In this document: piece after piece, positions 8,161-43,383 of the stretch | Position numbering within the stretch: the stretch's first letter is position 1 | Layout of the letters: every line of letters starts with the position of its first letter | Assembly: GCA_012295275.1 (NCBI GenBank) | Contig: CM022674.1 | Coordinates: forward strand, 17,174,001 to 17,238,000 | DNA: 64,000 nt | Reading direction: 5' to 3' | Source of the DNA: Chrysomallon squamiferum | Taxonomy: Eukaryota > Animalia > Mollusca | Program-made: the position numbers and the translations under genes | The notes under the pieces: model-generated | The model's database searches: none | What the model was told of the DNA's origin: nothing | The model's input: the letters and a program-made list of their open reading frames with translations, nothing else

Positions 8161-11100
8161 TTTTCGCCCACTCAGTAGTCTTAGAGAACAACAAAAAAGT
8201 ACAGTGAGTTATGAACATGTTTAATTCTAGTGTTTTTTAACCAAGCATTAACAAATTGAATTAATAACAACAACAACAGTAACAATAATTGTATTTCACA
8301 CACCTGTATTTTACCTTTCTATGTCTTAATTAAATTGTAATCCCACATATGTGTACATAAACTAGATGACCCTGTAGTAAAACAGTAGACACAAGATAAT
8401 TGTCTTCCTACACAGCTCTTTGGATTTTTTTGCTATCTAGGTATCTGGATTTTTTGGCCCAAAAATGTGAAATTATTTTATCATGACAATTTAATGTAAC
8501 AACAATTTTGATACAAAAAATCTTCCAAGATTTCATCCTGTCTCTTCTAATTATAACTCTCAGTTTTTAAGAGTTTGGATTCTGTTGTTGTGTGGTTGTT
8601 CTAGGAAAGAAAATGTATTTTTTTTCTTGTATTAAATTTCATTTATTTTTTTTCTAAATGAACATTAGCACACATTTTAATAATTTGAAATGTTTTGTGT
8701 TATTCTACTGGCAAGACTGAAAAGTTATATGATCAGTTAAAACAACTGCTTTAATATACAATTGCAAGAATCTAAAGATGGGATACATTGAATTATAATA
8801 AGTAATTGTTTTAAGCGTAATAGATCGATGTACATAGGTAATTCTGCAGTGCGTGTTAAACAACAGCAAATGGAGCTGATGAGTAATTCAGTAAATTATT
8901 TATAAAAGAGAATTCATCTCTGTATCTGTGGTTAATCTTAAATTTATGTCCTCAAATGACAGCAGATATTCACTCAAGTTATTAAGAATTTTTGTTTTCA
9001 CGATGTTCAGCTATGAAATGGTTATACATCCACTTTAGGATGTCAAACTTGTGGAATCATCTCATGTTTTCAGTCAGAATACAGGTAGACATGTTATCTC
9101 AATAACTTGTGTACAGATAAAACTATCATGTGACTGAAACAAATCTGGTATATTACAAATACACTAGTAAATAGAGCTGAACTATCTTTTTTTAAAGTAT
9201 GACTTTTTACTGTACTAGATTTGGTTCATAACATTTTATTTTGTAAATTAACCAGTTCCATCTACATTGATAATAATTAAATAAATAAATACAATTTTAT
9301 TTTAAGCATCAGTTTCAAGTGTGTTAATGACTTTTTATACTGATTTTGGAAAAAATGGCAGTTATAACAGATTTATTTTTGATTTTAATATTTTGTTCCT
9401 CTTGGTGCTTAATTCTTCTTTTTTATTTTTGTTTTTACTTTTTTATTAATATTTTTGTCAAATGACAGAAATTCTTTCATTACAATAGTAATAATAATAA
9501 TAATAAAAGAAAGTCTTACTTGACAATATTATTTTATGAAGCAAGGTAAATCAGTGTGTAAGTTTTGTATTGTTCTATTGACAGGACAGAAGAGTTGTAT
9601 GGTCAGTTACAGACAACTGGTTTAACATACAGCAGCTAATGTCTAAAGATGGGTTAAACTGAATTGTAAGTAAATGTTTTGTTTATTTATAATTAGTTAC
9701 ATTAAAATTTAATGTTATAAGTGTGCAATGTACAGTACAATACAGATAAAACTTTAGTTGTCAAAGCCAGTCTCAGGCTAGGTCCAGGTTTTATTAAAAA
9801 GTAACTTTTCATTCTTGTTGTAGTTTGTTACTTATAATTATTTCTTTAACAGTTTTCAACCTTTGCATAAAATATATTACACTGACTTCAATAAGCAAAT
9901 TTCATATTTGTCTCTGATACCAGAAATAGTTAATAATAAATGAAATTATTTTTTACCTTAGTTACCTAATGTTTCATTTGTTGCTATTTGTTTATTTATT
10001 TATCTACATTTGAAAAATGAAGTAACAGGACTTACTGAAGAGTTTTTAAGTGGAAACTCTGATCAGTGTTCTGTTTCTATTTCCAAGATAACAAAATGAC
10101 TGTCACTTAATTCATTTAAAAAAGAAAATAACTTGATATATTTTCAGTCACTGAATATTCTTGCTTTCTTCAAATATTTAATCAGTTTTCAGCAAGTATT
10201 ATGTAATGAAAGAACCCCAGTTAGGTGACACTAACTTTAATCCAAACATTTTGAGGCATAAATACAGCAGTTTTTACTCATTTTGTGAAGAAAATATTTA
10301 TTTCCAGAGCAGCTGTGTGTTTGTGTATATATATCTTCAATCTGATATAAATTTTTATACTTAGTGTAGAAAAATTATCATTCAGTAATCTATTAAACAA
10401 TTTAAAAACATAATAGAGTAATGACTATTATTATTATTTTGAAAATACATTTACATTTAATGGTTAAGTGAAGGAATACATACTCAAACACAATCATAAG
10501 TTATTATAATTACTCTAGAATCAATGATTAACTTCATGAAATTACTTTAAAACATTTATTTTATTTTCTATTTTTTTAACAAATACATGTATATATATGG
10601 TGTGGAGAAATCATCTTTAAAAAATAAATAATAAATAAAGAAAGTATTTGTACATAGTAAGATAATGGTTGAACACTGTACTATTCGTAGATGTCACTAC
10701 TGTACTGGTTGTGTTTTAAGATGACAGTTTCAAACACTGCACAGATAAAATGTTTCTGTAGATTAACATGAAATCATGAAGTGACCAAGAGTTGGTATTA
10801 AGAATATAGCAGTTTATTGAAAGCTGAAGTCTACAAATTCTCAAAGTATATTTATATACAAACACTCACAATACTGAAGAATAATCATACAATATTTATT
10901 TAATAGATATAGCAGTTTTCTCATCCTGATATAAAGTATTAGACATGTTCATACTGACTTATTCCAAAAAAATTGTTTTAAGAACTTACAGTACTAAATA
11001 AGTAAATAAGTTATGAAATACTTTTAGATTTAAATTAATACAAGTAAATATGAGAAGAGATACTAACAAAACCACAACAAACAGAACATAAGAGAGTGAA

Positions 11101-12089
11101 AATATAGTATACACCTGAAGAAATGTTAAGCATCCCAGTATTGGACATAGGATTTTTAAAATAACTCTTTTGTCATATAATTACCATGTAGTATTTAACA
11201 CCAAACACATTATTCGAAACTGTGGAGCTGAAATGTTAAAGAAATAGGTTAAGAAATCTGTTTCAGAGAGAAAAAATTGCTTAGTGTCTCTAGATTACAT
11301 CTGTAGTTAAAGGATTCAGTGACAAGTAAACATTCAGCCTGTAGGATCCAACTCATCTCTTCAGTTAAAAGTTGGATTTGTCAAATTGTCAACTAAACTC
11401 ATTCCCAGTTCTAAGCTGATTCCACTTCCACTCTGTGCATAAAATGCTCACTGATGACACAAATGTGCTGGACTCATGATTGGCCAAGGCTTGAAGAGTT
11501 ACAACATTAGGTTGGATGTAGAGTGTTGAGCTCACTAATGGACTGATGACTGTAACTGTTGTCAAGCTGTTGTCATATAGGTTTGAGGCATAACTGTTGA
11601 ATGCATCCTTATTTTGTGTCATCTTTGTGTTTATGATGTTCACCATTGTGCCAAGTTGACACTGAATGAGAGATGTGCTAAACACTGGAGTTCAAAATAT
11701 GATATTTGAGCATGCTGCAGTTAAGAAAAACAAGGAAACACCATACAGTGAAATCAGTTGTAACTGACATTCAGAAACATAGAACATCATTCTGTTGTCA
11801 ATCATCACAACTTTGTAATTACTTGTCACATTTTCACTCGTTATGTTCAGGTGTATATTTGTGATATTTTAGTTTGTATTGTTTATATAAAATAATTTAG
11901 TACAGTTGACAAGACTAAGAATATTACTTCAAAAAAATGTTCATTGTATAGTTATATTTGTATTGTTTATATAATTTAGTAATAGGTCTGACAAAACTAA
12001 GATAGGAATTGATTACAATATTATCAATATGATGCTTCACATGAATCTGAATCCAGAACTATCTGAACATGTATGTTTGTAATGTTTAG

Positions 12090-12220
12090 AAAAACGTGGA
12101 ATAACACTAGTAAATCAGAGCAGCAGAACAGCTGAGAAACAGGAACCCACAGTCAGAACCTGCCCCAGTTACCCCATCACCACCCCCTAAAAAGAAGGAA
12201 AAGAACAAATCCAAAATGAG
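12090..12220 (+). CDS. Upstream exon of STAND-ANK gene copy A (partly 5'UTR; candidate ATG at 12216)
   Basis: tttag|aa acceptor and ATGAG|gtaag donor; ATG-AG|C joins in frame with the 12779 exon; paralogous to 62590-62722. The true start codon is uncertain. Confidence 0.55.
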
Positions 12221-12778
12221 GTAAGATTAATTAATTAGAACTATGTTTTTAGGTAACAGTATTATGAAATTGTGTTTTCTTGAGTATTTCTAAATAACAT
12301 GATCAAACACCTCTTTTTTAAAAATGGGGATATCTATTTTAAGCCTTTTTTATTTGATTACTTTAAAAAAATGTTTCAGGCATTTATTTATAGAACCAAA
12401 TTGAGAATACAGTCTATGAGTCAATGCTAGTATTAATATAAGGTACTAGATGTAGGTCTCTAGTAAAGTTTGCAAGATGTAGTAGATATTTGGATGAATG
12501 CCTGCTGATGTAATCTTGAGCTGTTTTCATTTTAGCAGTGCTTAACACCTGATGTATGAAATAGTTTGTACTGTTTGTGGGTAGGTTTAAATGAAACATC
12601 ACTTGTTGTCATTAAGACAGAGTAGAGAGTGAAGTGACTGCAGTGGGTTTCTTTTCTTTTTGTTATCTGACTGTTCCTAAATCTTATGTCTGACCCATAT
12701 AAAAGTAAATAAAATAAGTAAATAAAACAGTTGATTTCTTCCTTTCTATATAAACAATCATTATATTATTTTTTACAG

Positions 12779-12978
12779 CTCAGGGAATATGGATGACAAA
12801 AATGAGAGTTCAGAAGTTTCTTCTAACACAGCAGCTGTTTCTTCTGCAGAGACTGTGACAGCTGTGTCTCTCTTAGACACTATGACAAGTCTATCTCTCT
12901 CTGGCATCACATCTCAGTCTTCCTTTGACATCACTCGTACAGAACATCATTTACAACTACCTGTGTCACAAAGTCGTG
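12779..12978 (+). CDS. S/T-rich N-terminal exon of STAND-ANK gene copy A (SGNMDDKNESSEVSS...PVSQSR)
   Basis: tttacag|ct acceptor, cgtg|gtaatg donor; 200 bp, phase 2 to phase 1, open frame; paralogue at 61571-62040. Confidence 0.7.
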
Positions 12979-13498
12979 GTAATGCACACAGTATTTCAAT
13001 GTACTGATTACTTTTTTAGTAGGAAATTATTAAGAGTCAACATTATTTTTATATTTGTTATAATATAATATTTCAATATATTGCTTATTTTATTGATGGT
13101 AAATTCTAAACTGACAGAAGTACTATTTACATTGGTATAAATACACTCTTTCTATGTATTGTGCAGTTACTTCTTAGGCATTAGTAAATTGACACTTTTA
13201 AAAGTTACATTCATAATGAATTAAGTTTCAAGTATTTACGGCCTTTTTGTTTCACAGATTAAAACAGTAAAGCAAAATACACTCTAGTTACTGTTTTGTT
13301 GCTTCATCGAGACCATTATAATTAATCTTGTATTTACTGTTAAACATTTTAATACTTTAAAGTAATACTTATTTCATAGCACCTGCACATAATCAGTTAA
13401 AAACATTTTTAAATGATATATTGTTATATGCAATAACACTTTTAATAGATTGTATTAATACTGTATTCTGTCCATAAAAATGTATTTACTCTTCACAG

Positions 13499-13585
13499 AT
13501 ACTCAAATAATACAACTTGTACAACCAACAGTAAAAATACGTCACTGTGGAAATGTTCTATTAGGAAACAAAAACAAGTTAATTA
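13499..13585 (+). CDS. RHIM-like exon, copy A: (D)TQIIQLVQPTVKIRHCGNVLLGNKNKLI
   Basis: ttcacag|at ... atta|gtaagt; 87 bp, phase 1-1; core tetrad VLLG at 13555-13566; colinear with the VQIG exon of copy C. Confidence 0.75.
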
Positions 13586-14399
13586 GTAAGTTGAAAACTG
13601 AAACTTTTCTTGTTCTGTACATGTTTAATGGATAAGAGAATACAGATTAGTGTTTTTCTCTCAGACACTTTGCAATTAACAACATCCACATGTGACCACT
13701 TATGCTAAAGGAGACAAGTGTATTTTTTTCTGAGATATAAATATATTTGGCATTCACATACAATATCATTTCCAATACATCACACATTTATTTTTATGTT
13801 GTAGCAGTTTCTAATATTGATATCACCATGTCATCACAAGAAATACATTTGTCAAAAAACTGTAAACATACATAAGTAGCACGCAATAGAATACCCAACC
13901 AATAATTTGCTGAAACATTCAGGAATTTCATATTGTAGAATTAAGAAGTAAATGTACACTGAGATGGTAATGTTTGTGTATGTGTGTATGTATGTATGTA
14001 TTATGTATATGTTTATATATATATGTATCTGTGTAAATATGTGATCTGTGTGTGTGTGCATTTGTAAACTTGATGGAAGTTTTATCCTGTTTTGGTGCAC
14101 ATGATCTTATTGGATGTAAGAAAAAACAGCAGTGAACTACACACGTATACTGATTAATAGACAAACTGAATAACATAGCTAACTCAGTAATTGTTTAGAA
14201 GTAATTTTACCTCTAGCAACTATATAGCTAAATTTGACCATATCAAAATTACTGATTTTTCATTAAATGAAATACTGACTAAATTTTTTGAATCCATTAA
14301 TGTTGCCCAGAACACAAAGCCCACTTGTCATGTGTGACCTATCTCAACCAATAACCAGTACACTATCCAAGGATACTGTGATCTGCTATTTCCTGAGTT

Positions 14400-15179
14400 T
14401 TCTCACCTTTGTTTTTAGAAACTGCTTCTAAAATTGTAATTTTCATTATCTTATGTCAATATGCATGTTTTAGCAATAGCTGGTGATATATGCAAAATCA
14501 CAGACACACACAAACACATTTTTGATACTGTATGCTCTGTATGTAGCTACAGACAGTTTCAGAAATAACATTTGTAGGCTGTGAGTTTAAATACTTTTTT
14601 TTTTTCTTTTTTTTTGCAGCAAACCGAGCACTGGTAGAACGTAATGTAAATATGAGAACAGATAAAAATCTTTCAAGTAACAGAAATACTGTATCAGGAG
14701 ATGAAGCTGTGAAAACCAGTAAGTTAAAAACCAAAACATTCTTAATAGATAACATAAATACATGTCACATTAATCGGTAGTATTTTACCATGAAGCAGTA
14801 TGACCAACACATGCAAACACAGACATAATACATACACACATATATGCCTACCCACTACGAAAAGTGCAGAAATTGTGTGAATGAGTTGTGTACAAAATTA
14901 TGTGCTATGCTCAATCATAGATTGCTCATGAATAAAATTAAACTGTCATTCATCACATCAACAACATTGGCCTGAGTGACTAAGATATATCTCACTTTAG
15001 AAATGTTCTGTTTGGAGACAGAAAATATTTAATTACCAAGTCGAAAACGGAAACTTGTTTTGCCTGCCTGTTTATTAGAATATGCATCAAAATACTCATT
15101 AGTATTTTTCTATCAGAATCTGTGACCTGAACAACATTCAAACAAACATAGACAATACATACATACATGTGTATGTATG

Positions 15180-15226
<47 letters not shown>

Positions 15227-15723
15227 CCAAAAGTCATGAACACATAGATGCAGACATTTAATGTAAAGAATTTTAGACATTTTTTAAAACATATTGATTT
15301 ATTCAATAATACTAACAAATGACTGATTTTATTCATACTGTGTGCAGTGGATTTACATATGGATCTGAGAAATAATGCTTGTAATTTGTGAAATTGAACA
15401 AGTTAATCCTGAGGCAATCAAATTAGAACAGTTACTTATGGAAAATGTCATAACACATGTTAATGCTGGCCAATCAGTAATTTAAAAATTTCACAAATCT
15501 GTGAGATCCAAAGCTGCCTTCCTAACTCCCACTGGACAATTTGAAGAAACTTAAGTCATGGACTACCTAGGAGTACTTATAATTTGGAACTAAATGTTTG
15601 AAGTTTATGATTTGTTAATGTTTGTAAAATAGTAATTAAAATAACAATAATTATAACAAATGTTACGCCAGCGCAGTTTTGTTGGCACACTTTTGTGCTT
15701 ATGTCCTTATTATTGTCTCACCC

Positions 15724-15760
<37 letters not shown>
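14400..15760 (+). repeat. Diverged direct paralogue of ~19630-20540 (intron of the STAND-ANK gene)
   Basis: Colinear from tctcacctttgttttt to the (CA)n tract, except for a ~450-bp segment missing in the second copy. Confidence 0.88.
14620..14718 (+). CDS. 99-bp linker exon unique to copy A: (T)NRALVERNVNMRTDKNLSSNRNTVSGDEAVKT
   Basis: Long polypyrimidine tract + gcag|ca, acca|gtaagt; phase 1-1, open frame; deleted in the homologous introns of copies B and C. Confidence 0.65.
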
Positions 15761-15761
<1 letters not shown>

Positions 15762-15768
15762 TTTTCAT

Positions 15769-15968
15769 NNNNNNNNNNNNNNNNNNNNNNNNNNNNNNNN
15801 NNNNNNNNNNNNNNNNNNNNNNNNNNNNNNNNNNNNNNNNNNNNNNNNNNNNNNNNNNNNNNNNNNNNNNNNNNNNNNNNNNNNNNNNNNNNNNNNNNNN
15901 NNNNNNNNNNNNNNNNNNNNNNNNNNNNNNNNNNNNNNNNNNNNNNNNNNNNNNNNNNNNNNNNNNNN
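15769..15968. other. Assembly gap (200 N)
   Basis: Run of N. Confidence 1.
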
Positions 15969-15993
15969 TTGGTACTTCAGTTCAGTTACTATT
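15969..15993 (+). other. Probable Oxford Nanopore ligation adapter remnant at a contig end
   Basis: ttGGTACTTCAGTTCAGTTACTATT resembles the adapter AATGTACTTCGTTCAGTTACGTATTGCT; the first ~17 nt are absent from the otherwise near-identical duplicate at ~29950. Confidence 0.7.
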
Positions 15994-16325
15994 TTTATTT
16001 TGTGAATCAACTAACTTTAGTTCAATCTTCAGTTTACATTTTTTCTATCAATTAACTGTTTCTTTAATTAATAGATGAAAATGAACAAATGGTGTTTGTC
16101 TATCACTTGTTACACATCCCATTTGTTGCATACCTAGTAGTAACAGCTGAAGTGTAATTAAGTCATTTCCAGTAATATTAGTGTAATAGTTACAGTGCTT
16201 TTCATTTTATTAATACAAAAATACAACTTTATATATAGTAATAATAATAATAGAAAGAAAGAAAGAAAAAAGCTTAGGAAAATATCTTCTAGTACACAAA
16301 AGTAAAGATCCTAATTTTCATATAG

Positions 16326-16370
<45 letters not shown>

Positions 16371-16849
16371 ATCTGTTATATCTGGTATATCTGTTCTTGT
16401 TTTTAATAATTTGAGGCACTATAAATCATAGATAAATTATTTTTTGAACTAAGATTGGATAAAACAAAATATGTTGATGATGATGATAAATAAATAAATA
16501 AAACATATCTTGAAGTATACATAATGTATTTAGGCTATTTAATTGTATGTAAACAGCGTCATAAATTGTGGACTCTTACCTACAGTACCTTTCCCACATG
16601 GGTAGATTCTGAATGCGAAACAAAGATTTCAATTTGACTTCCGATTTGTTCATGGTAGAGAAAATTATTTTATCACAGTTTTCACCTCCTCGTCTTCGGT
16701 CAAGTCATCAAGTTTTAGTTTCACCAGTTCTACTGGTTGGTAACAGTCTAGAGGGAACCAGTTGTCTGGGAGAGTTGGTGAACGTGGAAACTTCTTGAAC
16801 GAAAGACATCGATGAACTCTGCATTTTATTATATAATAAAAATAAGTAA

Positions 16850-16935
<86 letters not shown>

Positions 16936-19340
16936 AACAGTTTAAAAAAAATGAAGTATGATATTAAGATATACGATAACGACAGACAAGGTTTTAAAAC
17001 GTTAGGAAAAAAATATAAAAATAAGTAAAAATGAGGTGCAAAATATCGCAATCGAAAGTTATCGTTCTTGTACAATGTTTTCCTATTTACACTGTTTTTT
17101 TTTGTCTCTGTACATCATCACTGGAAACAAAAGCAGGTCTCCTCAGCAGTCGTCTTTGTTTTAATGTATTCAAATTTGTTTGGGTCATCTCCCTAAAATT
17201 TATTTTATACTGACATTTGTCTGTTTCAAAGTTGTAAAATGGTTGCCCAGCCAAGTACTTCAGTTCAAGAGTATATTGCAGACTTTCCTAAAATAAACAC
17301 AATATGCTGTTTTATATAATATTATAGAACGTGTAATGTGATATATCATATGATATATGTTATAGGTAATGTAATTTCAGGTGTGTGTCATGACGTGTAG
17401 TTCTTTGACTATGTATGAATGAGATATGTGATTATTTTTATTTGATAAATACTAATATATTAGAAACACAATGTTATAGGTATTAACATGAACATTTTAA
17501 ACATCTCTTTCTTTCTGTCTTCTTACTTTTTTTAAATTGATGCTTTATAAATTTTCATTTCTTTAAATATTAGTTATCTTTGCTACCTATAATATTGGTT
17601 ATTGTAGATGTTTTATTATTTTGTTTTTTTAATTTTATTTTTGAAGTAAGGAAACAAATAAATAAATAAATAGAACAAATAAAAAATAAAATAAAACAAA
17701 TAAGATGTTTAAGAAGAAAGCAGTTCAACAATAAAATAAAATGAATATTCACTGGTTCATAAGGCAAACAATTTCCAGAGTCTGCCTCAAAATACCAACA
17801 CCACTGTGTGAGCTGTGTGAAGTTGTCTTCTTGTGCAGTGACATACGATGCTGTTGAGAGACGCTGAACTTTGACATCAACCACTCCCAGTTCCAAACAA
17901 ACTAAAACTCTCATTAAGTGAAAATCAACAACAGTTGGAATGAAGTTACTGGCAAATGCAATAGAGAAATTCTTTGAAAATGAAAAAAAATGTGTGTATA
18001 TCTGTCTATATATACGAGTGTAGATTATAGATATAGATGTAAATTTTAATTAGTGGCACAAAAAAGTAATAGTAGAATTGTAATACGATTAACCCATAAC
18101 ATGTTTTCATATTGTTGTGTAGTAGTAAGTAATAAAAATAGTAAAAGAGTATACGTAAAACAAGAGAGGAAATCTTCTGAGATGTCATAATGTACTATTA
18201 TTTTTCAAAATATTTTGAATACATACGTTTTCAAAAAGAGAAAAACTTAGGACATTGGTTAGATCAGGATCCAAGGAGGACTGAACTGGTGGCCAATACC
18301 TTCTCAAGGATGTACTCTGAAACAAAAGTAAAACTGCATTATCATATGTCACTGTTATTAAAACTTATACTTTACTTATTCCATGTTCATTTATCGCTTC
18401 TGGTTGTTTTTAATTCACCTCTATATTTCCTGTGTCTGACATCAGACTACAAAAGCTCTGCTCGATCATCTCATTCTCCACTATGTCAAAGTTGACCCAT
18501 TTGTCACAAATCTCCATCTGCCACTGGTAATGTAGATATCTTTGTGTGTGGGTATTTGAATGTATTACACAGTGACTCCATACACATTTCTCACAAAGCA
18601 GACCTTCTATTTCATTGCTGTAATTCATTATTTCAAGGCTGTCATTCACATCAAGTTGTTTCTGCTGTGAAAGTTGAGCTGGATGTGCTTTGACTTTGAC
18701 ATCAAGTTGTTTCTGCTGTGAAACTTGTACTGTATCTGCTTTGACTTTGACATCAAGTTGTTTCTGCTGAGAAACGTGTGCTGGATCTGCTTTCACTTTG
18801 ACATCAAGTTGTTTCTGCTGTGAAACTTAATGTGGATTTGCTTTGACTTTTACACGTAATTGTTCTTCCTGTGAAATTCGTGCTCTATCTCCTGTAACTT
18901 TCACGCCAAGTTTTTTCTTCTGTGCATCTTGTACTGGATAAGCTTTCCTCTTCATATCAAGTTGTTTCTGCTGTTTTTGAGACGGAACTCTATTAATTTT
19001 GACATCAAGCTGTTTTTGCCTTTATACCTGTTTTAGATCTCCTTTTACTTTCAACCCAAGTTGTTTCTCTTCTAAATCTTCTATTGTATCTGCTGCGACT
19101 TTCCTGTCAAATTGTTCCTGTTCTGGAAGATCATCTTGGTAATACCACCCACTCGTTTCGAAGACGGCAATATCATCAAATTTATCAAAGTGAGATATAC
19201 TTCTGAAATAAAATATAACAGTGAATCAGTGATTTCTCTTAAATCTTCCACATTTTCATCATTAAATATAACATTGACTGTTTTTCTATTTTTTAAATGC
19301 ATTTTATATTGAATTAACAAAACTTTGGTAAATTTGTATC
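15985..19340 (+). repeat. Direct segmental duplication of ~29960-33326
   Basis: Identical ORFs at 16613 and 30590; differences are mostly homopolymer and microsatellite lengths. Confidence 0.92.
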
Positions 19341-20934: not shown

Positions 20935-20967
20935 CAAAGACTGATGAACGAGCGTCCCATATGAAAG
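20935..20967 (+). CDS. 33-bp linker micro-exon of the STAND-ANK gene (copy B), (T)KTDERASHMK(E)
   Basis: tttcag|ca ... aaag|gtataa; phase 1-1, in frame with the 21250 exon; same exon in copy C at 58852-58884. Confidence 0.7.
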
Positions 20968-21249: not shown

Positions 21250-24200
21250 AGTCTACCAGGTCACAGTTAAACTCAGTTGACTGGAGAGTCTATGTTGAAA
21301 CAAGAGCAGAAGAAAGAGGTGTAACACTTTTGAAAAAGAATGGTGTTGTGATTGTAGTAGGATGTCCAGGTTCAGGAAAGACAACTCTAGGTCTGAACAT
21401 GATTAAACAGATAGAGAAAGAAGAAAAAATAGACTCTTACATCATGACTCATCACTCTGATTTCAAATGCATTCCTGTGTCTAAAGTTAAACCATGTATT
21501 GTTCTCATTGATGACATATTTGGTAAAACTAATCTTGTATTAGATTTTGTGTCGTGCTGGAAACAGCTATTTCCAGAGGTGCGGAGTCTTGTTAAAGATA
21601 AGCGTGTGAGATGTATTATTACTTTAAGAAAACAAATATTTAGAGAAGTTATAGCCAATTTGAAGGAATTTGATCTTTTCAATGAAAATAATCTTCTTGA
21701 CCTGCAGAACGATAAATGTTGTCTGAATTATGATGAGAAGTCGAAAATTCTAAACAAGTATCTGAAACAAAAGAATGTTACAATGAATGAATGGGATAAA
21801 GGGACAGTGATTTCCTGTTCATGTACAGAGTTAGGATTTCCTCAGGTGTGTGTGTATTATGTTAATTCAAGTGATGCACAGAATAGAGGAGTTACGTTTT
21901 TTAAGAATCCTGTAGAATATCTCACACAACAACTGGAAGATTTGAAAAATGATAAATTACCTGGTTCACAGATAAAGTACCTGGTTCTACTGCTGATGTT
22001 GTTCCAGCAAGGCAGTTTCAGCATTGATTTACTGGACCCATTTGAAAATAACTCTGACAGTCACATAATGAAATTAGTAAGACTGCTAGAGCAAGTCTGT
22101 CTGAGTCTGAAAAACACTGGTCTCACAGATATAAAGAAAACAGCTGATGAAATGTGTGGTACCTATCTGAAGTGTTCTGACAATAAATACACATTTATTC
22201 ACCAGTCAGTGTTTGACTCATTGTTTCTGACGTTTTCATCACAGTTTCCAAAGAAAGCAGCAGAGTTGCTAGAAATATGTCCTGTCTCCATGTTGTTAGA
22301 ATATGTTGTGACGCCTGGAGTGTCTAACAAAAGTCACATTACAATGACTGTGAAATCTAACAGCTTTGATGTTCTTGCTCGGAGATTTACTGACTTGTTG
22401 GCATCAAGCAATGCCGAATACATTATTTCACATCCGTCATTGAAAGATGAAGAGTTTGTGAAGTATCTCACAGAGAAAAAATACTTTAATGATAAATTGT
22501 CTGAAATACTGCATCAACAACTACATAAAGATCAACATAAACATTTGTGTATATCATCTGTAAACGTAGACAATCTTGATGAAATATTTAGCTATATTTC
22601 ATGTCTTCTTCATGATTATTCAAAATGTTCTATTTACATGTATCTGGATACTAAAAAACATTTTGTATTTTCATCATCTGTTCAAAGTGAGTGTATTGTC
22701 AAGGGATTAAGAACATTGTCAATTTTTTTCTCTGAATATCTGTGTAAAATGAAATTAACAAATCTGAAAAAAGAACTTTTGAGTATTTCTTGTTTGTTTG
22801 GTGATGAAGATGTTGTGAAAAAGTTGCTAAAATCAGGTGTTATTCCATCATTTGATACACTGACTGCAGCTGCTTGTTCCAAAACCGACAATACTACCAT
22901 ACTCAAAGAATTGTTACAGTGTGAAACAGAGATGAGATCGCATGACTATTCAGATCTCTTATTTGCTTCTATTTGTTCAGGGAATATGAAGATTGCATGT
23001 CTATTAGCTGGAAAGATACAAAATGAGAAACACAACAGTGAAATCAAGGAAAAAGCCATTAAACTGTTATTGGTTAGGTTCCATAGACAAGTAAGACTTG
23101 ATTCAAGAAAATGGCATTTTGGAAAGTCGAAGACTTCTGAAGTTGTTGATGTAAGCCATCTTTTTAAAAAACTGGTTACCATTGATATAATAAACAAAAT
23201 TAAACACATTGCTATTGTTGCTGCTTGTCAGAGTAATTCTCGTGTTATAAAAGAAATAGTAAAACTGAAACCTGATTGTTTAAATGATGAGAACAGAGAT
23301 AAAGTACTTTTAGCAGCAGCAGTATGGGGAGCCACTGACACAGTGAATTTTCTCATTGAGCAGAGATGTAATGATGGAGATGAGACCTGGAAGAAAAGTC
23401 AATTACTGAAAGTGGCAGTGATGTTTAACAGTGCAGATATTGTTCAGTGTCTTCTTGAAAAAGGAGCTGATCCAAATGTTAATGTAGCTGTTAATCAGAT
23501 ATGGATTCAGTTGTTTAAAGAAGAAATGGAATTTGAACTGTTGTTTGGTGTCAAAATTAATTTCGACATGTTGCCTTCATATACACCCCTCCATCTTTCA
23601 GTTCTCCGTGGTGACTTAGATATGATAAAATCACTAATAAAGAAAAATGCTGATGTTAATGCAGTAAACACTGAGGGAAAAATTCCACTTCATGAAGCTG
23701 TAAATGCAGTGACACACAGGAGGGAAGTAGCTTTGTTGTTACTGAAAAATGGTGCTCATACCGATATAAGAGATTACAACAAGAATTCAGCATTGCACAT
23801 AGCCTCTGAAATTGACATAGATGTTGTCAAAGAAGTAACAAAAAAGGGTGCTGAAATAAATGCAATTAACAGTGAACATAAAACTCCTCTTCATGTATCC
23901 TTGATATGTCACAGACCAGAAATAGCTTTATATTTACTAAACCAAGGAGCTGATCCTCATTTAACAGACAGTGATAACAATTCTGTTTTACACTTAGCAG
24001 CTAAACATGGAAATGAAGAAATTGTGACAGCACTGATTGAAAAAGGTGTTGATGTAAATGTAAAAAACAGGAAAGGTGAAAATCCTCTTTTTACAGCTCT
24101 GAATTATGACAAATTAGATTATTTAGATCTAGCGATGTCTTCTGTTAAGACAAAAATAGCTTTGGTTTTACTTGATCATGGAGCTGACGGTAATCTGAAA

Positions 24201-27200
24201 AATGACAATTCTATTTTACACTTAGCAGCTAAATGTGGAAATGCAGAAATTGTGACAGCACTGATTGAAAAAGGTGTTGACGTTAATGTTAAGAACAGTC
24301 AAGGTAAAACTCCTCTTTTTACAGCTGTTGTGTTTCAGCATCACAAAATAGTTTTGTATTTACTAAAACAAGGAGCTGATCCTCATTTAAGAGACAATGA
24401 TAACAATTCTGTTTTACACTTAGCAACCAAATGTGGAAATGCAGAAATTGTGATATCACTGATTGAAAAAGGTGTTGATGTTAATGTTAAGAACTGTCAA
24501 GGTGAAACTCCTCTTTTTACAGCTTTTAAGTTGAAGAAATACAAAATATGTTTGGATTTATTAAAACAAGGAGCTGATCCTAATTTAACAGACAATGATC
24601 ACAATACTGTTTTACACTTGGCAGCTGAATATGGAAGTCTAGAAATTGTGACAGCACTGATTGAAAAAGGTGTTGATGTAAATATTAAGAACAGTGAAGG
24701 TGAAACTGCTCTTACTAAATTTCTGAAATTCAACACATTTTATTATCTTGAATATCCAACTATGTCCTTTGATGAGACAAACGTAGCTTTGGTTTTACTA
24801 AAACATGGAGCTGATCCTAATATAATAGATAATGAGAACAATTCAGTTTTAGACTTAGCAGCTAAAAGTGGAAACAAAGAAATTGTGACAGCACTGATTG
24901 AAAAAGGTGCTGATGTAAATGTTAAGAACAGAAAAGGTGAAACTCCTCTTTTTACAGCTTTTAAGTTGAAGAAATACAAAATATGTTTGGATTTATTAAA
25001 ACAAGGAGCTGATCCTAATTTAACAGACAATGATCACAATACTGTTTTACACTTGGCAGCTGAATATGGAAGTCTAGAAATTGTGACAGCACTGATTGAA
25101 AAAGGTGTTGATGTAAATGTTAAGAACAGAACAGGTGAAACTCCTCTTTTTACAGCTGTTGTGTTTCAGCATCACAAAATAGTTTTGTATTTACTACAAC
25201 AAGGAGCTGATCCTCATTTAAGAGACAATGATAACAATTCTGTTTTACACTTAGCAACCAAATGTCGAAATGCAGAAATTGTGAAAGCACTGATTGAAAA
25301 AGGTGTTGATGTAAATGTCAAGAACAGAGAAGGTGAAACTCCTCTTGTTACATTTCTGAAATACTACCGTTTAAATGTTTCTCGTTACAATCTACATGTG
25401 TCCTCTTATATACCAAAACTAGCTTTGTTTTTACTGGATCATGGAGCTGATCCTAATTTAACAGACAATGATAACAATACTGTTTTACACTTGGCAGCTA
25501 AATATGGAAGTCTAGAAATTGTGAAAGCACTGATTGAAAAAGGTGTTGATGTAAATGTTAAGAACAGAGAAGGTGAAACTCTCCTGTTTACATATCTGAA
25601 ATACTACTATTTAGGTGATTGTCTTGACGATCTAGATGAGTCCTCTTATATACCAAAACTAGTTTTCGTTTTACTGGAACATGGAGCTGATCCTAATTTA
25701 ACAGACAATGATAACAATACTGTTTTACACTTTGCAGCTAAATGTGGAAATGCAGAAATTGTGACAGCACTGATTGAAAAAGGTGTTGATGTAAATGTTC
25801 AGAACAGAAAAGGTGAAACTGCTCTTTTTACAGCTTTTAAGTTGAAGAAATACAAAATATGTTTGGATTTATTAAAACAAGGAGCTGATCCTAATTTAAC
25901 AGACAATCATAACAATTCTGTTTTATACTTGGCAGCTAAATGTGGAAATGCAGAAATTGTGACAGCACTGATTGAAAAAGGTGTTGATGTAAATGTTAAG
26001 AACAGAAAAGGTGAAACTCCTCTGTTTACATTTCTGAAATACTACTGTTTAAATGTTTCTCGTTACGATCTATATGTGTCCCCTTATACACCAAAACTAG
26101 CTTTGTTTTTACTGGATCATGGAGCTGATCCTAATTTAACAGACAATGATAACAATACTGTTTTACACTTGGCAGCTAAATATGGAAGTCTAGAAATTGT
26201 GAAAGCACTGATTGAAAAAGGTGTTGATGTAAATGTTAAGAACAGAGAAGGTGAAACTCCTCTTTGTACCTTTCTGAAAGATTACTGTATAAGTGTTTGT
26301 TGTTACGATCTAGATGTGTCCTCTAATATACCAAAACTAGATTTGTTTTTACTGGAACATGGAGCTGATCCTAATTTAACAGACAATGATAACAATTCTG
26401 TTTTACACTTGGCAGCTGAAAGTGGAAATGCAGAAATTGTGACAGCACTGATTGAAAAAGGTGTTGATGTAAATGTTCAGAACAGAAAAGGTGAAACTCC
26501 TCTTTTTACAGCTTTTAAGTTGAAGAAATACAAAATAGGTTTGGATTTATTAAAACAAGGAGCTGATCCTAATTTAACAGACATTGATAACAATACTGTT
26601 TTACACTTGGCAGCTCAATCTGGAAATCTTGAAATATTGATAGCACTGATTGAAAAAGGTGTTGACGTTAATGTTAAGAACAGTCAAGGTGAAACTCCTC
26701 TTTTTACAGCTGTTGTGTTTCAGCATCACAAAATAGTTTTGTATTTACTAAAACAAGGAGCTGATCCTCATTTAAGAGACAATGATAACAATTCTGTTTT
26801 ACACTTGGCAGCTCAATCTGGAAATCTTGAAATATTGATAGCACTGATTGAAAAAGGTGTTGACGTTAATGTTAAGAACAGTCAAGGTGAAACTCCTCTT
26901 TTTACAGCTGTTGTGTTTCAGCATCACAAAATAGTTTTGTATTTACTAAAACAAGGAGCTGATCCTCATTTAAGAGACAATGATAACAATTCTGTTTTAC
27001 ACTTAGCAACCAAATGTCGAAATGCAGAAATTGTGAAAGCACTGATTGAAAAAGGTGTTGATGTAAATGTTAAGAACAGAGAAGGTGAAACTCCTCTTGT
27101 TACATTTCTGAAATACTACTGTTTAAATGTTTCTCGTTATGAGGTATATGTGTCCTCCTCTATACAAAAACTAGTTTTGGTTTTACTGGAACATGGAGCT

Positions 27201-27620
27201 GATCCTAATTTAACAGACAATGATAACAATACTGTTTTACACTTGGCAGCTAAATGTGGAAATGCAGAAATTGTGACAGCACTGATTGAAAAAGGTGCTT
27301 ATGTAAATGTTCAGAACAGAAAAGGTGAAACTCCTCTTTTTACAGCTTTTAAGTTTCAGAAATACAAAATAGGTTTGGATTTATTAAAACAAGGAGCTGA
27401 TCCTAATTTAACAGACAATGATCACAATACTGTTTTACACTTGGCAGCTAAATGTGGAAATGCAGAAATTGTGACAGCACTGATTGAAAAAGGTGTTGAT
27501 GTAAATGTTAAAAATGGTCAAGGTGAGACTCCTCTTGACAAAGCTAAGAGTAACCGAAGGGAAATTGTTTCCTATTTATTGGAGCATGGTGGTAAATGTA
27601 GTAACATAAATACATTTTGA
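21250..27620 (+). CDS. Giant terminal exon of NLR-like STAND NTPase (nSTAND3-type)-ankyrin repeat protein, copy B
   Basis: Uninterrupted 2096-aa ORF, extendable upstream to acceptor ttcag|ag at 21250 (ESTRSQLNSVDWRVYVETRAEERG...). Walker A GCPGSGKT at 21360-21383, Walker B IVLIDDIFG, sensor-like IITLR. The YVET...GxPGSGKT...hhhhDDhFG pattern is typical of nSTAND3. About 17 di-ankyrin modules follow (HLAAxxG.EIVTALIEKGVDVN / GETPLFT..LLxxGADPN). Confidence 0.93.
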
Positions 27621-29480: not shown

Positions 29481-30302
29481 AGCTTTATAATGATTTACTT
29501 TTAATTTACTTGTTTGTTTTTCAGTGATGCAAAACAGAAAGTATTTTCTAATGTGCTAACCTTTGCTGCTTATGTCACTATTACATAAACTGTATGCAAT
29601 GTGTCAGTTTATGTATTGTTTTTTTAATACACTGATACAATTTATTTTGTTTGGGATATATGTATTGTTTATAATACTTGGCTATTGTTTTCAGTTAATA
29701 TTTTTCATACATTTATTTTATCTTCATACACTGAATAAGAAGAGAAAGACTTTTTTCTTTTTTCAAAAGAAATATATTTATATATTTATTTGTTTATTTA
29801 TATTATTATCATTATTATTAATTGGGAATATGTTTATTTATTCTTACTTCTATGTATTTAATCATTAGAATATGCTGATTCAGTTTGAATAGCAAATACT
29901 TGTATATGTTTTTAATTACACTGATTCTTTTTTTCTTATTTAATTTGCATGATAGAATGTTTTTACTATTTTTATTTTGTGAATCAACTAACTTTAGTTC
30001 AATCTTCAGTTTACATTTTTTCTATCAATTAACTGTTTCTTTAATTAATAGATGAAAATGAACAAATGGTGTTTGTCTATCACTTGTTACACATCCCATT
30101 TGTTGCATACCTAGTAGTAACAGCTGAAGTGTAATTAAGTCATTTCCAGTAATATTAGTGTAATAGTTACAGTGCTTTTCATTTTATTAATACAAAAATA
30201 CAACTTTATATATAGTAATAATAATAATAGAAAGAAAGAAAGAAAAAAGCTTAGGAAAATATCTTCTAGTACACAAAAGTAAAGATCCTAATTTTCATAT
30301 AG

Positions 30303-30348
<46 letters not shown>

Positions 30349-30556
30349 ATCTGTTATATCTGGTATATCTGTTCTTGTTTTTAATAATTTGAGGCACTAT
30401 AAATCATAGATAAATTATTTTTGAACTAAGATTGGATAAAACAAAATATGTTGATGATGATGATAAATAAATAAATAAAACATATCTTGAAGTATACATA
30501 ATGTATTTAGGCTATTTAATTGTATGTAAACAGCGTCATAAATTGTGGACTCTTAC

Positions 30557-30826
30557 CTACAGTACCTTTCCCACATGGGTAGATTCTGAATGCGAAACAA
30601 AGATTTCAATTTGACTTCCGATTTGTTCATGGTAGAGAAAATTATTTTATCACAGTTTTCACCTCCTCGTCTTCGGTCAAGTCATCAAGTTTTAGTTTCA
30701 CCAGTTCTACTGGTTGGTAACAGTCTAGAGGGAACCAGTTGTCTGGGAGAGTTGGTGAACGTGGAAACTTCTTGAACGAAAGACATCGATGAACTCTGCA
30801 TTTTATTATATAATAAAAATAAAAAT

Positions 30827-30907
<81 letters not shown>

Positions 30908-33326
30908 TAAACAGTTTAAAAAAAATGAAGTATGATATTAAGATATACGATAACGACAGACAAGGTTTTAAAACGTTAGGAGAAAAAAATATATAAAATA
31001 AGTAAAAATGAGGTGCAAAATATCGCAATCGAAAGTTATCGTTCTTGTACAATGTTTTCCTATTTACACTGTTTTTTTTTTGTCTCTGTACATCATCACT
31101 GGAAACAAAAAGCAGGTCTCCTCAGCAGTCGTCTTTGTTTTAATGTATTCAAATTTGTTTGGGTCATCTCCCTAAAATTTATTTTATACTGACATTTGTC
31201 TGTTTCAAAGTTGTAAAATGGTTGCCCAGCCAAGTACTTCAGTTCAAGAGTATATTGCAGACTTTCCTAAAATAAACACAATATGCTGTTTTATATAATA
31301 TTATAGAACGTGTAATGTGATATATCATATGATATATGTTATAGGGTAATGTAATTTCAGGTGTGTGTCATGACGTGTAGTTCTTTGACTATGTATGAAT
31401 GAGATATGTGATTATTTTTATTTGATAAATACTAATATATTAGAAACACAATGTTATAGGTATTAACATGAACATTTTAAACATCTCTTTCTTTCTGTCT
31501 TCTTACTTTTTTTTTAATTGATGCTTTATAAATTTTCATTTCTTTAAATATTAGTTATCTTTGCTACCTATAATATTGGTTATTGTAGATGTTTTATTAT
31601 TTTGTTTTTTTTTTAATTTTATTTTTGAAGTAAGGAAACAAATAAATAAATAAATAGAACAAATAAAAAATAAAATAAAACAAATAAGATGTTTAAGAAG
31701 AAAGCAGTTCAACAATAAAATAAAATGAATATTCACTGGTTCATAAGGCAAACAATTTCCAGAGTCTGCCTCAAAATACCAACACCACTGTGTGAGCTGT
31801 GTGAAGTTGTCTTCTTGTGCAGTGACATACGATGCTGTTGAGAGACGCTGAACTTTGACATCAACCACTCCCAGTTCCAAACAAACTAAAACTCTCATTA
31901 AGTGAAAATCAACAACAGTTGGAATGAAGTTACTGGCAAATGCAATAGAGAAATTCTTTGAAAATGAAAAAAAAAAAAATATCTGTCTATATATACGAGT
32001 GTAGATTATAGATATAGATGTAAATTTTAATTAGTGGCACAAAAAAAAAAGTAATAGTAGAATTGTAATACGATTAACCCATAACATGTTTTCATATTGT
32101 TGTGTAGTAGTAAGTAATAAAAATAGTAAAAGAGTATACGTAAAACAAGAGAGGAAATCTTCTGAGATGTCATAATGTACTATTATTTTTCAAAATATTT
32201 TTTGAATACATACGTTTTCAAAAAAGAGAAAAAACTTAGGACATTGGTTAGATCAGGATCCAAGGAGGACTGAACTGGTGGCCAATACCTTCTCAAGGAT
32301 GTACTCTGAAACAAAAGTAAAACTGCATTATCATATGTCACTGTTATTAAAACTTATACTTTATTCCATGTTCATTTATCGCTTCTGGTTGTTTTTTTAA
32401 TTCACCTCTATATTTCCTGTGTCTGACATCAGACTACAAAAGCTCTGCTCGATCATCTCATTCTCCACTATGTCAAAGTTGACCCATTTGTCACAAATCT
32501 CCATCTGCCACTGGTAATGTAGATATCTTTGTGTGTGGGTATTTGAATGTATTACACAGTGACTCCATACACATTTCTCATAAAGCAGACCTTCTATCTC
32601 GTTGCTGTAATTCATTATTTCAAGGCTGTCATTCACATCAAGTTGTTTCTGCTGTGAAAGTTGAGCTGGATGTGCTTTGACTTTGACATCAAGTTGTTTC
32701 TGCTGTGAAACTTGTACTGTATCTGCTTTGACTTTGACATCAAGTTGTTTCTGCTGAGAAACGTGTGCTGGATCTGCTTTCACTTTGACATCAAGTTGTT
32801 TCTGCTGTGAAACTTAATGTGGATTTGCTTTGACTTTTTACACGTAATTGTTCTTCCTGTGAAATTCGTGCTCTATCTCCTGTAACTTTCACGCCAAGTT
32901 TTTTTTTCTGTGCATCTTGTACTGGATAAGCTTTCCTCTTCATATCAAGTTGTTTCTGCTGTTTTTGAGACGGAACTCTATTAATTTTGACATCAAGCTG
33001 TTTTGCCTTTATACCTGTTTTAGATCTCCTTTTACTTTCAACCCAAGTTGTTTCTCTTCTAAATCTTCTATTGTATCTGCTGCGACTTTCCTGTCAAATT
33101 GTTCCTGTTCTGGAAGATCATCTTGGTAATACCACCCACTCGTTTCGAAGACGGCAATATCATCAAATTTATCAAAGTGAGATATACTTCTGAAATAAAA
33201 TATAACAGTGAATCAGTGATTTCTCTTAAATCTTCCACATTTTCATCATTAAATATAACATTGACTGTTTTTCTATTTTTAAATGCATTTTATATTGAAT
33301 TAACAAAACTTTGGTAAATTTGTATC
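30557..33326 (-). pseudogene. WWE-WWE-PARP pseudogene fragment, copy 2 (cut by the gap)
   Basis: Near-identical to copy 1 at an offset of about +13.98 kb, with the same stop codons. Confidence 0.8.
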
Positions 33327-39842: not shown

Positions 39843-42342
39843 GCGGCAGATGTGATAAAATGAATAAATGTTATGAATAACTATAATTTTAACTATGTGA
39901 ATGTTATGAATGACTATACTTTTAACTATGTGAATGTTATGAATGTCCAATTATTTGTAGATGTAATAAAATGAACAAATGTTATGAATGACTATAATTT
40001 AACTATGCAGTAAAATAAACGATGAAGTGATCGAACGATTTTTTTCAGGTTATTTATTGATATAGACTATTCCATACTCGCTTATTGTATTAGGGGTTAG
40101 CGCGTATCAGTGATTTTTATATAAGAACAGTAGAGTTCTGTATAAGAACAATAATACGGAGACACCGCGTGTTATTCAAGGTAAATAGCAGGTTATTAGT
40201 AACGCGCTCAACCTTGTCTTGTATTGTTTAATGCCTCCGCGTTATGGGACCTCAGTCTTTTGGGAGGTCACCCACAGATTCACGAGTCAGTATGACACAA
40301 AGAATTACATTACACAGGTGTGTGCGTCAGTAGTATATACAAAGAATTATATTACATGGATGTTTGGGTCAGTAGGCTATATAAGTGAATACATTACAGG
40401 GTACAAAGGTCAGTACGATTTACAACGGACTATATTACAGTGGTATATGGGTTGGAAGGGTTGACAAAGATTTACATTACAGCGTTCAAGATCTGAGCAT
40501 ATTTCTCAAAAACAATATTACAATCAGGCAAGACACATTAAAGGAACAAGTTATATCAGACTGTGTTACAGATGTGTATGGTTATCTTTTCATTACATTT
40601 TGAAGTTTATTGTTACGTGAGATTTTTGTTATAAGGGCAATGTATAATTAATTATATTGCTGACGTTAAATGGGTCATTTGTAGTTATATATAATAGTGG
40701 TGTACTGACCACGTAGAATTAAATCATATCGGTACAGGTGTCAGATATATTGATATATGGTATCATAAGAGGCCGTAGGATCAATCCTTCTTAGCGTACC
40801 CTTTGCATTATATTTCTTCTTAGCGATGAGATATGTGTGTATGCACACACACACACACACACACAATTATTGGTAACTGAAAACCTCTTTTTTTTCTTTC
40901 GTACAATTATCATGTAGATAAAAGGATTGTTGGTAAATTTAGACTCACTGACTATTCAGTTATTTTATATATCTAAATGTCAGTCACTATCTTGGTTACT
41001 CACACTGATACACTGAAGGAACGGAAAACAATTTAATTTACACATTTCATTTCCTTTGTTACTTTTCCTCATATAAATGATTACTGCTTGACAGTCACAT
41101 AATAACAAAAAGTTAGTTGGGCATAATTACATGCAAGCCATTCATTAAAATGAATATTACTCGTAGTCATGCAAAAAGAGTTCTGTCAAAGATATCCATG
41201 CTTAAGAAAAGAAAAACTATTTTTTTTATTTATATTTAATATTTATCTTATTGCTATTGATTTATGTATATGATCTTCTATCACTGTATTAAATCAAATG
41301 CTATTATAATTTTTATGATATATTTTAGATAGCGAAAAAGACCTGTAACTTAACTGATCTAAAGGTTGATATATATCGATAAACAAACCGATTAGAAAGA
41401 AATATACATAGATACGGACAGACAGACAGACAAATCAGTGGTTGAAATGCTTTGGTGTTATTATTTTTATTAGTATTATTTTATTATTTTTATTAGTATT
41501 ATTTTATTATTTGTATTAGTATTAATAAAATAGTTTCTTATATGCATTTATGTTAACATATTGTATTGTCTTGATTACTCATAAACAATAAATAAAATTT
41601 ACCGAATTGTAATATCTTTCTTATATTATAACAAGAGTTAATTACAGCACAATTTAACTACTTCATGAAGTTTAATGTTTAAGTCTTGTGTAATTTCCAC
41701 ACACAACAAATACTAATTGGAAATTATTTAAAATGTTAACTACAAAATGCTTATTTCCCGTTCTAGATATCTCATACGAAAATTGATTAATAAACACTTT
41801 TTCGTCTAACCAATTTATTTATTTAGAAGAAGCATAAACAACCAGAAACAGTAACTGGAAAAGTGTAATGACCGAGTTCAAAGAAATTACATAAAGAGAT
41901 TTTCAGAGAGAAAGAAAACAAAACTAAATCACACACACTTTACAGCTTTAGTTTAGTTATTTCAGAAATGCTAAATAAGAAGGTTTGAAACTATATACAT
42001 TTCATTTTTTAAATGTGATGTATGGCTACAGTATCAGGACAGTTTCAAGTAACAACATACATGTACAGGGGAAAAGACCGCTTTTGTGTGTGTGTATGTA
42101 TGTGTGTGACTGTGTGTGTGTGTGTGTGTGTGTGTTTATGTGTCTGTTTCTAAGGTGGAGGCATACATTCGTATGATTCTTTCTCTTTCGTTTACAGATG
42201 CATTAATATTGTATGTAATTTACACTAATACAGTTAATAATATGCATATTTTAAACGTTATTTACAAACAAATAAAAACACAAAGTTTCAAAAAACAAAA
42301 TCCTCTGTACTATTAAAGAGATTGTTTTTCACATTTGCTTAC

Positions 42343-42992: not shown

Positions 42993-43383
42993 CTGGATAT
43001 TAAATATTGCATTTTTATAGTGTCTACTCTGGATTTTTGATTTTAAATATGTGCTTTTGTAATGTTTACTGTAGATGATGCAATTGAAATATATATTTTT
43101 TGTAGTTTTTTCTACAAATTTTGAATATTAAATATTCATTTTTTAGTGTTTATTGTAGATTTTTTATGTTAAATATGTATGTTTGTATTATTTACTCTAG
43201 ATTTTGGATACTAAATTTGTATTTTCGAAGTGTTTACTGTAGATTTTGGAGATAAAATTGATCATTAAGGTGTTGTGACTTTTTCAAATACCTTGAACCG
43301 TTAAATATTGACTGTTAACCATGATGATATAAATATCATATTTAAACGTCTGCCTGAGACATGTAGTTATATATCTCTCTCTA

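Follow-up and report, generated by a model that had tools for sequence, protein, structure and literature searches.

Two related exons in this stretch of Chrysomallon squamiferum DNA encode a short motif resembling the RHIM, and every codon in which they differ changes the amino acid. The locus raises two questions: what kind of gene carries this motif, and whether the pattern reflects diversifying selection, as a sequence-only reading of the DNA had proposed, or some other process. Throughout, the window denotes the whole 64,000-nt stretch that was analysed.

Gene copies and exon layout

The window is intron-rich, with a GC content of 30%, and self-alignment places three copies of the gene in it, not two. 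These copies, termed A1, A2 and B, have the following features.

10806-15768, + strand: copy A1, stopping at a 200-N gap
12090-12220, + strand: A1 upstream exon, coding or 5ʹ UTR; a 2-nt deletion relative to copy B produces a stop in B's frame
12779-12978, + strand: A1 S/T-rich low-complexity exon; the ATG at 12789 (A at −3, G at +4) is a possible start
13499-13585, + strand: A1 RHIM-like exon, core VLLG, no Pfam match
14620-14718, + strand: A1 99-nt spacer exon, missing from copies A2 and B
14992-15035, + strand: remnant of a second A1 RHIM-like exon, core VLFG, with its 5ʹ half gone and its donor GT lost
15769-15968, no strand: assembly gap of 200 N, hiding the 3ʹ part of copy A1
from 19612, + strand: copy A2, 5ʹ-truncated, without a RHIM exon, large frame intact
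20935-20967, + strand: A2 33-nt linker exon
21250-27620, + strand: A2 large exon with an intact 2122-codon frame (nSTAND3 NTPase, helical and winged-helix-like part, ankyrin repeats)
64000-48153, − strand: copy B, delimited by self-alignment
62590-62722, − strand: B upstream exon, open in frame
61571-62040, − strand: B S/T-rich exon, with ten extra 27-nt repeats
60963-61049, − strand: B RHIM exon, core VQIG (Pfam PF12721, 20.3 bits, E 0.0004)
58852-58884, − strand: B 33-nt linker exon
50927-58566, − strand: B nSTAND3-ankyrin exon, open for 256 codons to the first stop

In copy B, the exons follow one another in the order upstream, S/T-rich, RHIM, 33-nt linker and NTPase-ankyrin, all in phase, and the tetrad lies 58 residues before Walker A. 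The motif, the STAND NTPase and the repeats are contiguous and in phase in this copy, with the frame broken by frameshifts: the NTPase part of the nSTAND3-ankyrin exon has lost 5 nt near 57857 and gained 1 nt near 57537, and the same exon has a garbled stretch near 51200-51465. These frameshifts are putative lesions and are possibly assembly noise, which the garbled 3ʹ end and homopolymer indels elsewhere show to be present. The ten extra 27-nt repeats of the S/T-rich exon, at 61653-61987, lengthen the spacer before the RHIM by 90 residues.

The VLLG exon of copy A1 is cut off from the intact open reading frame by the gap, and the intact copy A2 lacks a RHIM exon. Treating the VLLG exon as part of the intact 2122-codon frame was considered and rejected; the two are frame-compatible, but the gap and a 3ʹ-flank segment intervene, and A2 is B-like, its introns being 1.1% diverged from B versus 11.9% from A1; A1 is about 12% away from each of the other two copies. 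Because a segment found behind the 3ʹ end of these genes sits between the gap and A2, the NTPase exon belonging to A1 itself probably lies in the gap. The second RHIM-like exon (VLFG) is deleted in both A2 and B. The 2-nt deletion in the upstream exon of A1 need not disable this copy, since the possible start at 12789 lies downstream of it.

The layout has two further features. A 3.4-kb segment is doubled (15986-19340 and 29963-33326), occupying both ends of the contig between two 200-N gaps; it contains a tandem repeat of 51 nt whose minus strand has an open frame, the two copies of the segment are 15 substitutions and 19 mostly homopolymer indels apart, and the duplicate is either a tandem duplication or an assembly overlap. 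Upstream of A1 are two related exon-like pieces (8692-8812 and 9562-9680), the second with stops in all three frames as judged by eye; both are possibly 5ʹ UTR or degenerate exons.

Contigs of four runs, two of DNA (X1 and X3) and two of RNA (X6 and X7), were placed on 11900-13960. The DNA runs yielded up to 16 contigs at single sites, which indicates a multi-copy family. In RNA run X7, two contigs contain the S/T exon spliced onto the RHIM exon; their letters do not match A1 and are only one or two away from B. RNA run X6 includes contigs identical to A1 over 12112-12218 in the upstream exon and over 12836-12921 in the S/T-rich exon, and the 2-nt deletion of the A1 upstream exon also occurs in an RNA contig. 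Despite these A1-identical contigs on two upstream exons, no X6 contig falls on the RHIM exon, which is not taken as silence; the depth of DNA contigs dips over the RHIM-like exon, which is not taken as evidence of divergence. None of the 40 variant rows listed, out of 576, falls within this exon. X1 and X3 each have one contig that fits the downstream intron yet runs, in a 30-letter loose end, into the end of another exon, which reads SQIG. At 12963, an X6 transcript of another copy's S/T exon runs into a different next exon that is absent from the window at 80% identity and is possibly a more diverged RHIM-like exon.

A predicted NLR-like receptor and its relatives

As described in PMC12119088 and PMC4262963, the V/I-Q-V/I-G tetrad of a RHIM has an Asn and an apolar residue downstream of it. 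The copy B peptide has this arrangement (VQIG, N at +6, F at +8) and passes the Pfam RHIM model marginally, its score standing against a cut-off of 20 bits. The A1 peptide departs from the tetrad in that VLLG has no Q, but it retains the apolar positions, the G, the N and the apolar residue at +8; it matched no family in Pfam and did not reach the RHIM cut-off. By sequence, copy B is a marginal RHIM member, while copy A1 is RHIM-like and non-canonical. The earlier designation of a RHIM exon is supported in the looser form RHIM-like, and the exon heads an NLR-like gene. Both exons are preceded by the low-complexity S/T-rich exon, in which Pfam finds no match, and the VQIG peptide had no match among solved structures.

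The large exon is more readily classified. The nSTAND3 domain (PF20720) scores 89.8 bits in copy A2 and 97.9 bits in copy B against a cut-off of 27.2 (E 2e-25), and ankyrin repeats are also matched. Residues G37/G40/G42/K43, D87, R126, F196-P197 and H317 are invariant across 16 aligned NTPase sequences, and the positions that we take to be Walker A, Walker B, the sensor Arg, GxP and the winged-helix/FxH are invariant or nearly so in these 16. A 400-residue, alignment-based model of the NTPase reached a pLDDT of 88 and resembles STAND/AAA+ structures, including the NRC1 NB-ARC, MalT, SAMD9 and NOD2, at TM 0.4-0.5; a single-sequence fold with a pLDDT of 37 was discarded. The gene is predicted to encode a mollusc NLR-like receptor consisting of a RHIM-like motif, an nSTAND3 NTPase and ankyrin repeats.

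A search of representative proteins returned 896 at E ≤0.001, of which 150 were listed, and the set analysed comprised 159 proteins. The nearest named homologues are proteins of Gigantopelta aegis and Haliotis; among six G. aegis matches, five share 39-42% identity over the first 560 residues and the sixth 33%. Mollusc nSTAND3-ankyrin proteins (PF20720; G. aegis LOC121387063, LOC121373407, LOC121373015 and others) have the same domain order as the window gene. These proteins, annotated as uncharacterised or ankyrin proteins, include RHIM-like cores VHVG and VQFG located 60-64 residues before Walker A, with none of the proteins scanned passing Pfam RHIM, and in two from G. aegis (P0004 and P0005) a motif-like core, the NTPase and the ankyrins occur within one protein.

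For the relatives at large, the N-terminal zone was taken as the 35-200 residues before Walker A, and 82 of the 159 proteins had at least 20 residues there. A pattern built on the scaffold of the two exons in the window, and blind to the second tetrad position, matches nine of these 82 at a distance of 60-107 residues ahead of Walker A (shuffles average 1.6 matches, and none of 2000 attains nine), although enrichment over the NTPase-region background is weak (9 in 9664 versus 15 in 33117 residues, P 0.07). The nine matched cores are VHVG, VQFG, TNVG, LYIG, VEIG, TQIG, ISVG and, twice, LSIG; Q is present in two and missing from seven. A Q/H-tetrad pattern gave 11 matches (shuffled mean 4.7, P 0.009). 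Pfam RHIM was found in none of 11 and none of 28 whole proteins, nor in any of five excised stretches; the whole-protein scan covered 39 of the 159 relatives, the 28 having been picked for their N-terminal extensions. A two-sequence HMM of the exons had no significant match in 16 relatives, and querying proteins with the two genomic frames that contain the exons gave one candidate and none at E ≤10. The motifs in relatives are best described as RHIM-like by pattern only.

Other relatives have caspase, DZIP3-HEPN, death, DED or SAM domains in the same place before the NTPase, which suggests, by analogy with fungal NLRs, an interchangeable N-terminal effector slot. Proteins with a caspase (P0008, and P0023 by its likeness to P0008), death, SAM or weak DED domain before nSTAND3 are P0008, P0023, P0055, P0092, P0113 and P0129. 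In the open-access literature, represented mostly by titles and the starts of abstracts without supplements, no description of a mollusc RHIM-nSTAND3-ankyrin family was found, and the family is apparently undescribed.

Divergence of the RHIM-like exon and its possible causes

The exon pair compared consists of 13499-13585 (+) of copy A1 and 60963-61049 (−) of copy B. Pairwise codon comparison gives 17 differences in 87 nt and 14 changed codons among 28 whole codons, all 14 of them amino-acid-altering (A1/B: I/T, L/H, V/A, Q/K, K/N, I/V, R/S, G/E, N/K, L/Q, L/I, N/A, K/G and L/F), so the count of the sequence-only reading was reproduced exactly. Its statement that no codon differs only synonymously also holds, but one silent step is hidden in the CTA/CAG (L/Q) pair whichever path is taken, and the tally becomes 16 nonsynonymous changes and one synonymous. 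As had been observed, length and splice sites are kept, both exons being 87 nt with AG/GT borders and an intact frame; the encoded peptides are 50% identical. The impression that the exon is more diverged than its flanking introns was confirmed by comparison: 139 of 1276 gap-masked intron columns differ (10.9%) versus 19.5% of exon positions (Fisher P = 0.022), and none of 1182 overlapping 87-column intron windows holds 17 differences (maximum 16).

The rise in rate is evident in pN, which is 0.25, compared with a pS of 0.05 and a flanking-intron divergence of 0.11. Simulation with base-specific intron rates predicts 7.1 nonsynonymous changes where 16 are observed (P = 0.0011; P = 0.005 with rates from the nearest 300 nt of intron on each side), which rules out base composition as the cause of the excess, and after base-composition correction pN is 2.3 times the intron rate. 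The two exons adjoining the RHIM-like exon have no rate excess (pN 0.08 and 0.10). In the S/T-rich neighbour, 10 of 10 changed codons are nonsynonymous at an ordinary rate (pN 0.08); the absence of silent-only codons is therefore not special to the RHIM-like exon, whereas the raised rate is. The excess of amino-acid-changing differences over the flanking introns is real. A dN/dS above 1 within the exon is borderline, coming from one pair with one silent change: the ratio is 5-7, with P = 0.03-0.08 varying with kappa and test, and the simulated probability of at most one silent change among 17 is 0.04-0.06. Of the diversifying selection originally proposed, the nonsynonymous excess beyond chance thus stands, and the ratio itself is left borderline. 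The signal is real but comes from this single pair, chosen for looking extreme, and likely reflects diversifying selection.

The direction of change was polarised with the VLFG remnant at 14992-15035 as sole outgroup, which covers only the last 44 nt of the exon. Ten differences could be polarised there: the VQIG (B) lineage accounts for seven, each of them nonsynonymous and the L-to-Q and L-to-I replacements among them, and the VLLG (A1) lineage for three. Changes on the VQIG lineage affect 7 of 44 exon sites versus 4-6 of 109 intron sites (P 0.014-0.043), whereas the VLLG lineage is intron-like (3 of 44 versus 9 of 109); the difference in polarity that separates exon from intron does not itself reach significance (P 0.10-0.23). 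With seven of ten changes on the B lineage, either VQIG looks derived or the A1 exon was partly converted by a VLFG-type donor. To judge from the outgroup, VQIG looks derived rather than VLLG decayed. The suggestion that VLLG is an attenuated or decoy RHIM is not supported, given this polarity, the seven of nine relatives' cores without Q and the location of the frameshifts, which are in the NTPase exon of the VQIG copy.

The reading placed at an even chance is that a RHIM-like motif, predicted to form a signalling amyloid, fronts an NLR-like receptor and that the excess changes come from positive selection, mostly on the VQIG lineage. It draws on pN being raised without a raised pS, in the RHIM-like exon only when set against its two neighbours, and mostly on one lineage. 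That the differences are instead consensus errors or mixed haplotypes is very improbable. Indel noise is present, both in the 3.4-kb segment and at the garbled 3ʹ end of copy B, and at the sites listed several A1 letters are missing from every contig of DNA runs X1 and X3; however, all 17 differences are substitutions that disturb neither the reading frame nor the splice sites, the independent remnant exon shares 7 of 10 A1 letters, and two neighbouring exons have A1-identical RNA contigs. Relaxed constraint combined with chance, in which decaying copies drift neutrally and this exon is the tail of a distribution among many scanned, would account for some of the same observations. About three quarters of neutral changes are nonsynonymous anyway, the S/T exon likewise has no silent-only codon, and six of seven scaffold positions are kept between the exons, no better than chance (P 0.37). 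Copy B has its 5-nt deletion and 1-nt insertion, copy A1 its 2-nt deletion and dead second RHIM exon, and between A2 and B the rest of the gene has a pN/pS of 0.75-1.13 in four segments (875 codons), near neutral. Neutral drift nevertheless predicts an intron-like rate, which pN exceeds 2.3-fold (P 0.001-0.005), and both exons have kept frame, length and splice sites even though 17 random changes would introduce a stop codon in 57% of cases; related copies, moreover, are spliced in RNA contigs. Relaxed constraint is accordingly judged quite unlikely.

Gene conversion deserves separate consideration, having been, like the gap between the VLLG exon and the intact frame, absent from the sequence-only reading. 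The gene family duplicates, recombines and decays fast. Introns of A2 and B differ at 7 of 633 positions (1.1%), whereas synonymous sites in codons 400-880 differ at ~27 of 339 (about 8%; P about 1e-7); the A2/B coding stretch is a patchwork made by exchange with other paralogues, and its exons are mosaic. Comparing 22000-23900 of A2 with 55900-57800 of B gives 3-11% divergence per 200 nt, silent sites included, against ~1% in introns and 3ʹ flank. One RHIM-like exon, most simply that of A1, could likewise have been partly overwritten by a distant exon of the VLFG type; the common ancestor of the exons would then be older than that of the introns, and no selection would be needed for the peak. 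Besides mosaicism at the same locus and the multi-copy nature of the family, with up to 16 contigs per site, this explanation can point to the VLFG remnant, which is nearer the A1 exon (9 of 44 differences) than the B exon (13 of 44), while the introns behind the two exons are equally far from the remnant's (37 and 34 of 109). Whole-exon conversion fares poorly, as ~6 silent differences would be expected in 20 sites at the 31% RHIM-exon-intron divergence and one is seen (P 0.006); conversion of the 3ʹ half only is compatible with the silent count (P 0.13). In addition, A1 differs from the remnant by 20%, above the 11% expected if conversion were younger than the A1/B split, and the exon-intron contrast for A1 versus the remnant is not significant (P 0.12). 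Overall, conversion is considered somewhat unlikely as the source of the pattern.

Proposed signalling and comparison with known systems

The placement of a RHIM before a STAND NTPase and repeats is already known from fungi, bacteria and Branchiostoma. Fungal NWD2 (HET-s motif) and PNT1 (PP motif) and bacterial BASS3 NLRs, like the window gene, carry a short amyloid-type motif before a STAND NTPase and C-terminal repeats. The PP and BASS3 motifs are described as RHIM-related (PMC7885112; bioRxiv 10.1101/2020.01.06.895854), and diversification of fungal amyloid motifs into classes has been proposed (PMC4518210). Unlike these fungal and bacterial NLRs, the window gene is an animal gene with introns and has nSTAND3 instead of NACHT or NB-ARC. 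It also differs in that no neighbouring gene in the 64-kb window encodes an effector bearing a corresponding motif; tblastn and a motif scan of the window found the two exons and the remnant only. The G-x-Q-x-G signature is incomplete here, copy B being without the first G and copy A1 without that G and the Q. The closest metazoan parallel listed is the Branchiostoma RHIM-NACHT-repeat protein BF82280, in which, as related in PMC4262963, a RHIM takes the usual place of a death-fold domain before a STAND NTPase and repeats; the window gene differs from it in being molluscan, in combining nSTAND3 with ankyrin, in being multi-copy and in its measurable recent motif divergence.

By analogy with fungal NWD2/PNT1, for which PMC7885112 describes amyloid templating by the NLR, binding of a ligand by the ankyrin repeats would lead the NTPase to oligomerise and the motifs to cluster. 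The clustered motifs could then nucleate an amyloid that templates a RHIM-bearing partner, with NF-kB signalling or cell death as the outcome. Within the motif, the scaffold of apolar residues, glycine and asparagine would tend to stay while other positions, including the second tetrad position, change, and such changes may tune the seeding strength or partner choice of each copy. What was observed is the architecture, the excess of divergence, the direction in which the exon changed (given the outgroup) and exon splicing in related copies; amyloid formation, the RHIM partner and the selective agent are inferred. The window itself contains no RHIM-bearing partner; zebra mussel RIPK1-like proteins with a conserved RHIM, reported in PMC12119088, make mollusc proteins of this kind a candidate partner by analogy.

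Vertebrate RHIMs provide a second point of reference. Copy B resembles those of RIPK1, RIPK3, ZBP1 and TRIF in having a V/I-Q-V/I-G tetrad with an Asn and an apolar residue after it, but the vertebrate proteins act as kinases or adaptors and do not belong to the STAND receptors. PMC12119088 reports that the RIPK3 RHIM and the sequence around it have been under positive selection; in RIPK3 the tetrad is conserved and its flanks evolve, whereas two tetrad positions differ here between close paralogues. The same paper describes natural single changes in the RIPK3 tetrad that lower NF-kB output and leave cell death intact, which suggests that motif changes may tune rather than switch signalling. 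Against the earlier suggestion of an orthogonal amyloid channel for each paralogue, cross-seeding persists between fungal PP motifs that share just 36% identity (PMC7885112), so the 50% identity of the VQIG and VLLG peptides does not imply separate channels.

Viruses are a conceivable selective agent, as the earlier suggestion of escape from pathogen mimics would have it. HSV ICP6 is a viral RHIM decoy. The cytomegalovirus vIRA is a RHIM inhibitor (PMC4262963), and a bivalve iridovirus has a predicted CARD-RHIM protein (PMC12452177), which makes viral pressure plausible in molluscs but is no demonstration of it for the window's gene. In the fullest version of the proposal, which is unlikely as a whole, a mollusc NLR-like family would signal by amyloid templating while selection rewrites the motif core between paralogues to switch partners; VQIG, gained from VL(L/F)G, would couple to a RIPK1-like RHIM pathway, and the VLLG copies would use another or escape viral RHIM mimics.

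In vertebrates the tetrad is the conserved part of the RHIM, and a family with tetrad turnover between close paralogues would contrast with this. If the selective reading is true, such paralogues would be natural close sequence pairs for testing how amyloid seeding specificity evolves, and would allow a test of whether viral RHIM proteins, for example the iridovirus CARD-RHIM protein, drive the turnover. If conversion or decay explains the pair, the annotation of an overlooked invertebrate receptor family remains useful.

Two observations concern other parts of the window. A 100-codon S/T-rich frame without a Pfam match lies on the opposite strand to the receptor copies at 11389-11691 (−) and 63134-63436 (+), in the best-conserved A1/B stretch (19 of 682 positions different, 11401-12088), and may be an exon of an antisense gene. 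Between A2 and B, at 42313-43127 (−), are exons of a pyridoxal-dependent decarboxylase (PF00282, with single exons below the cut-off).
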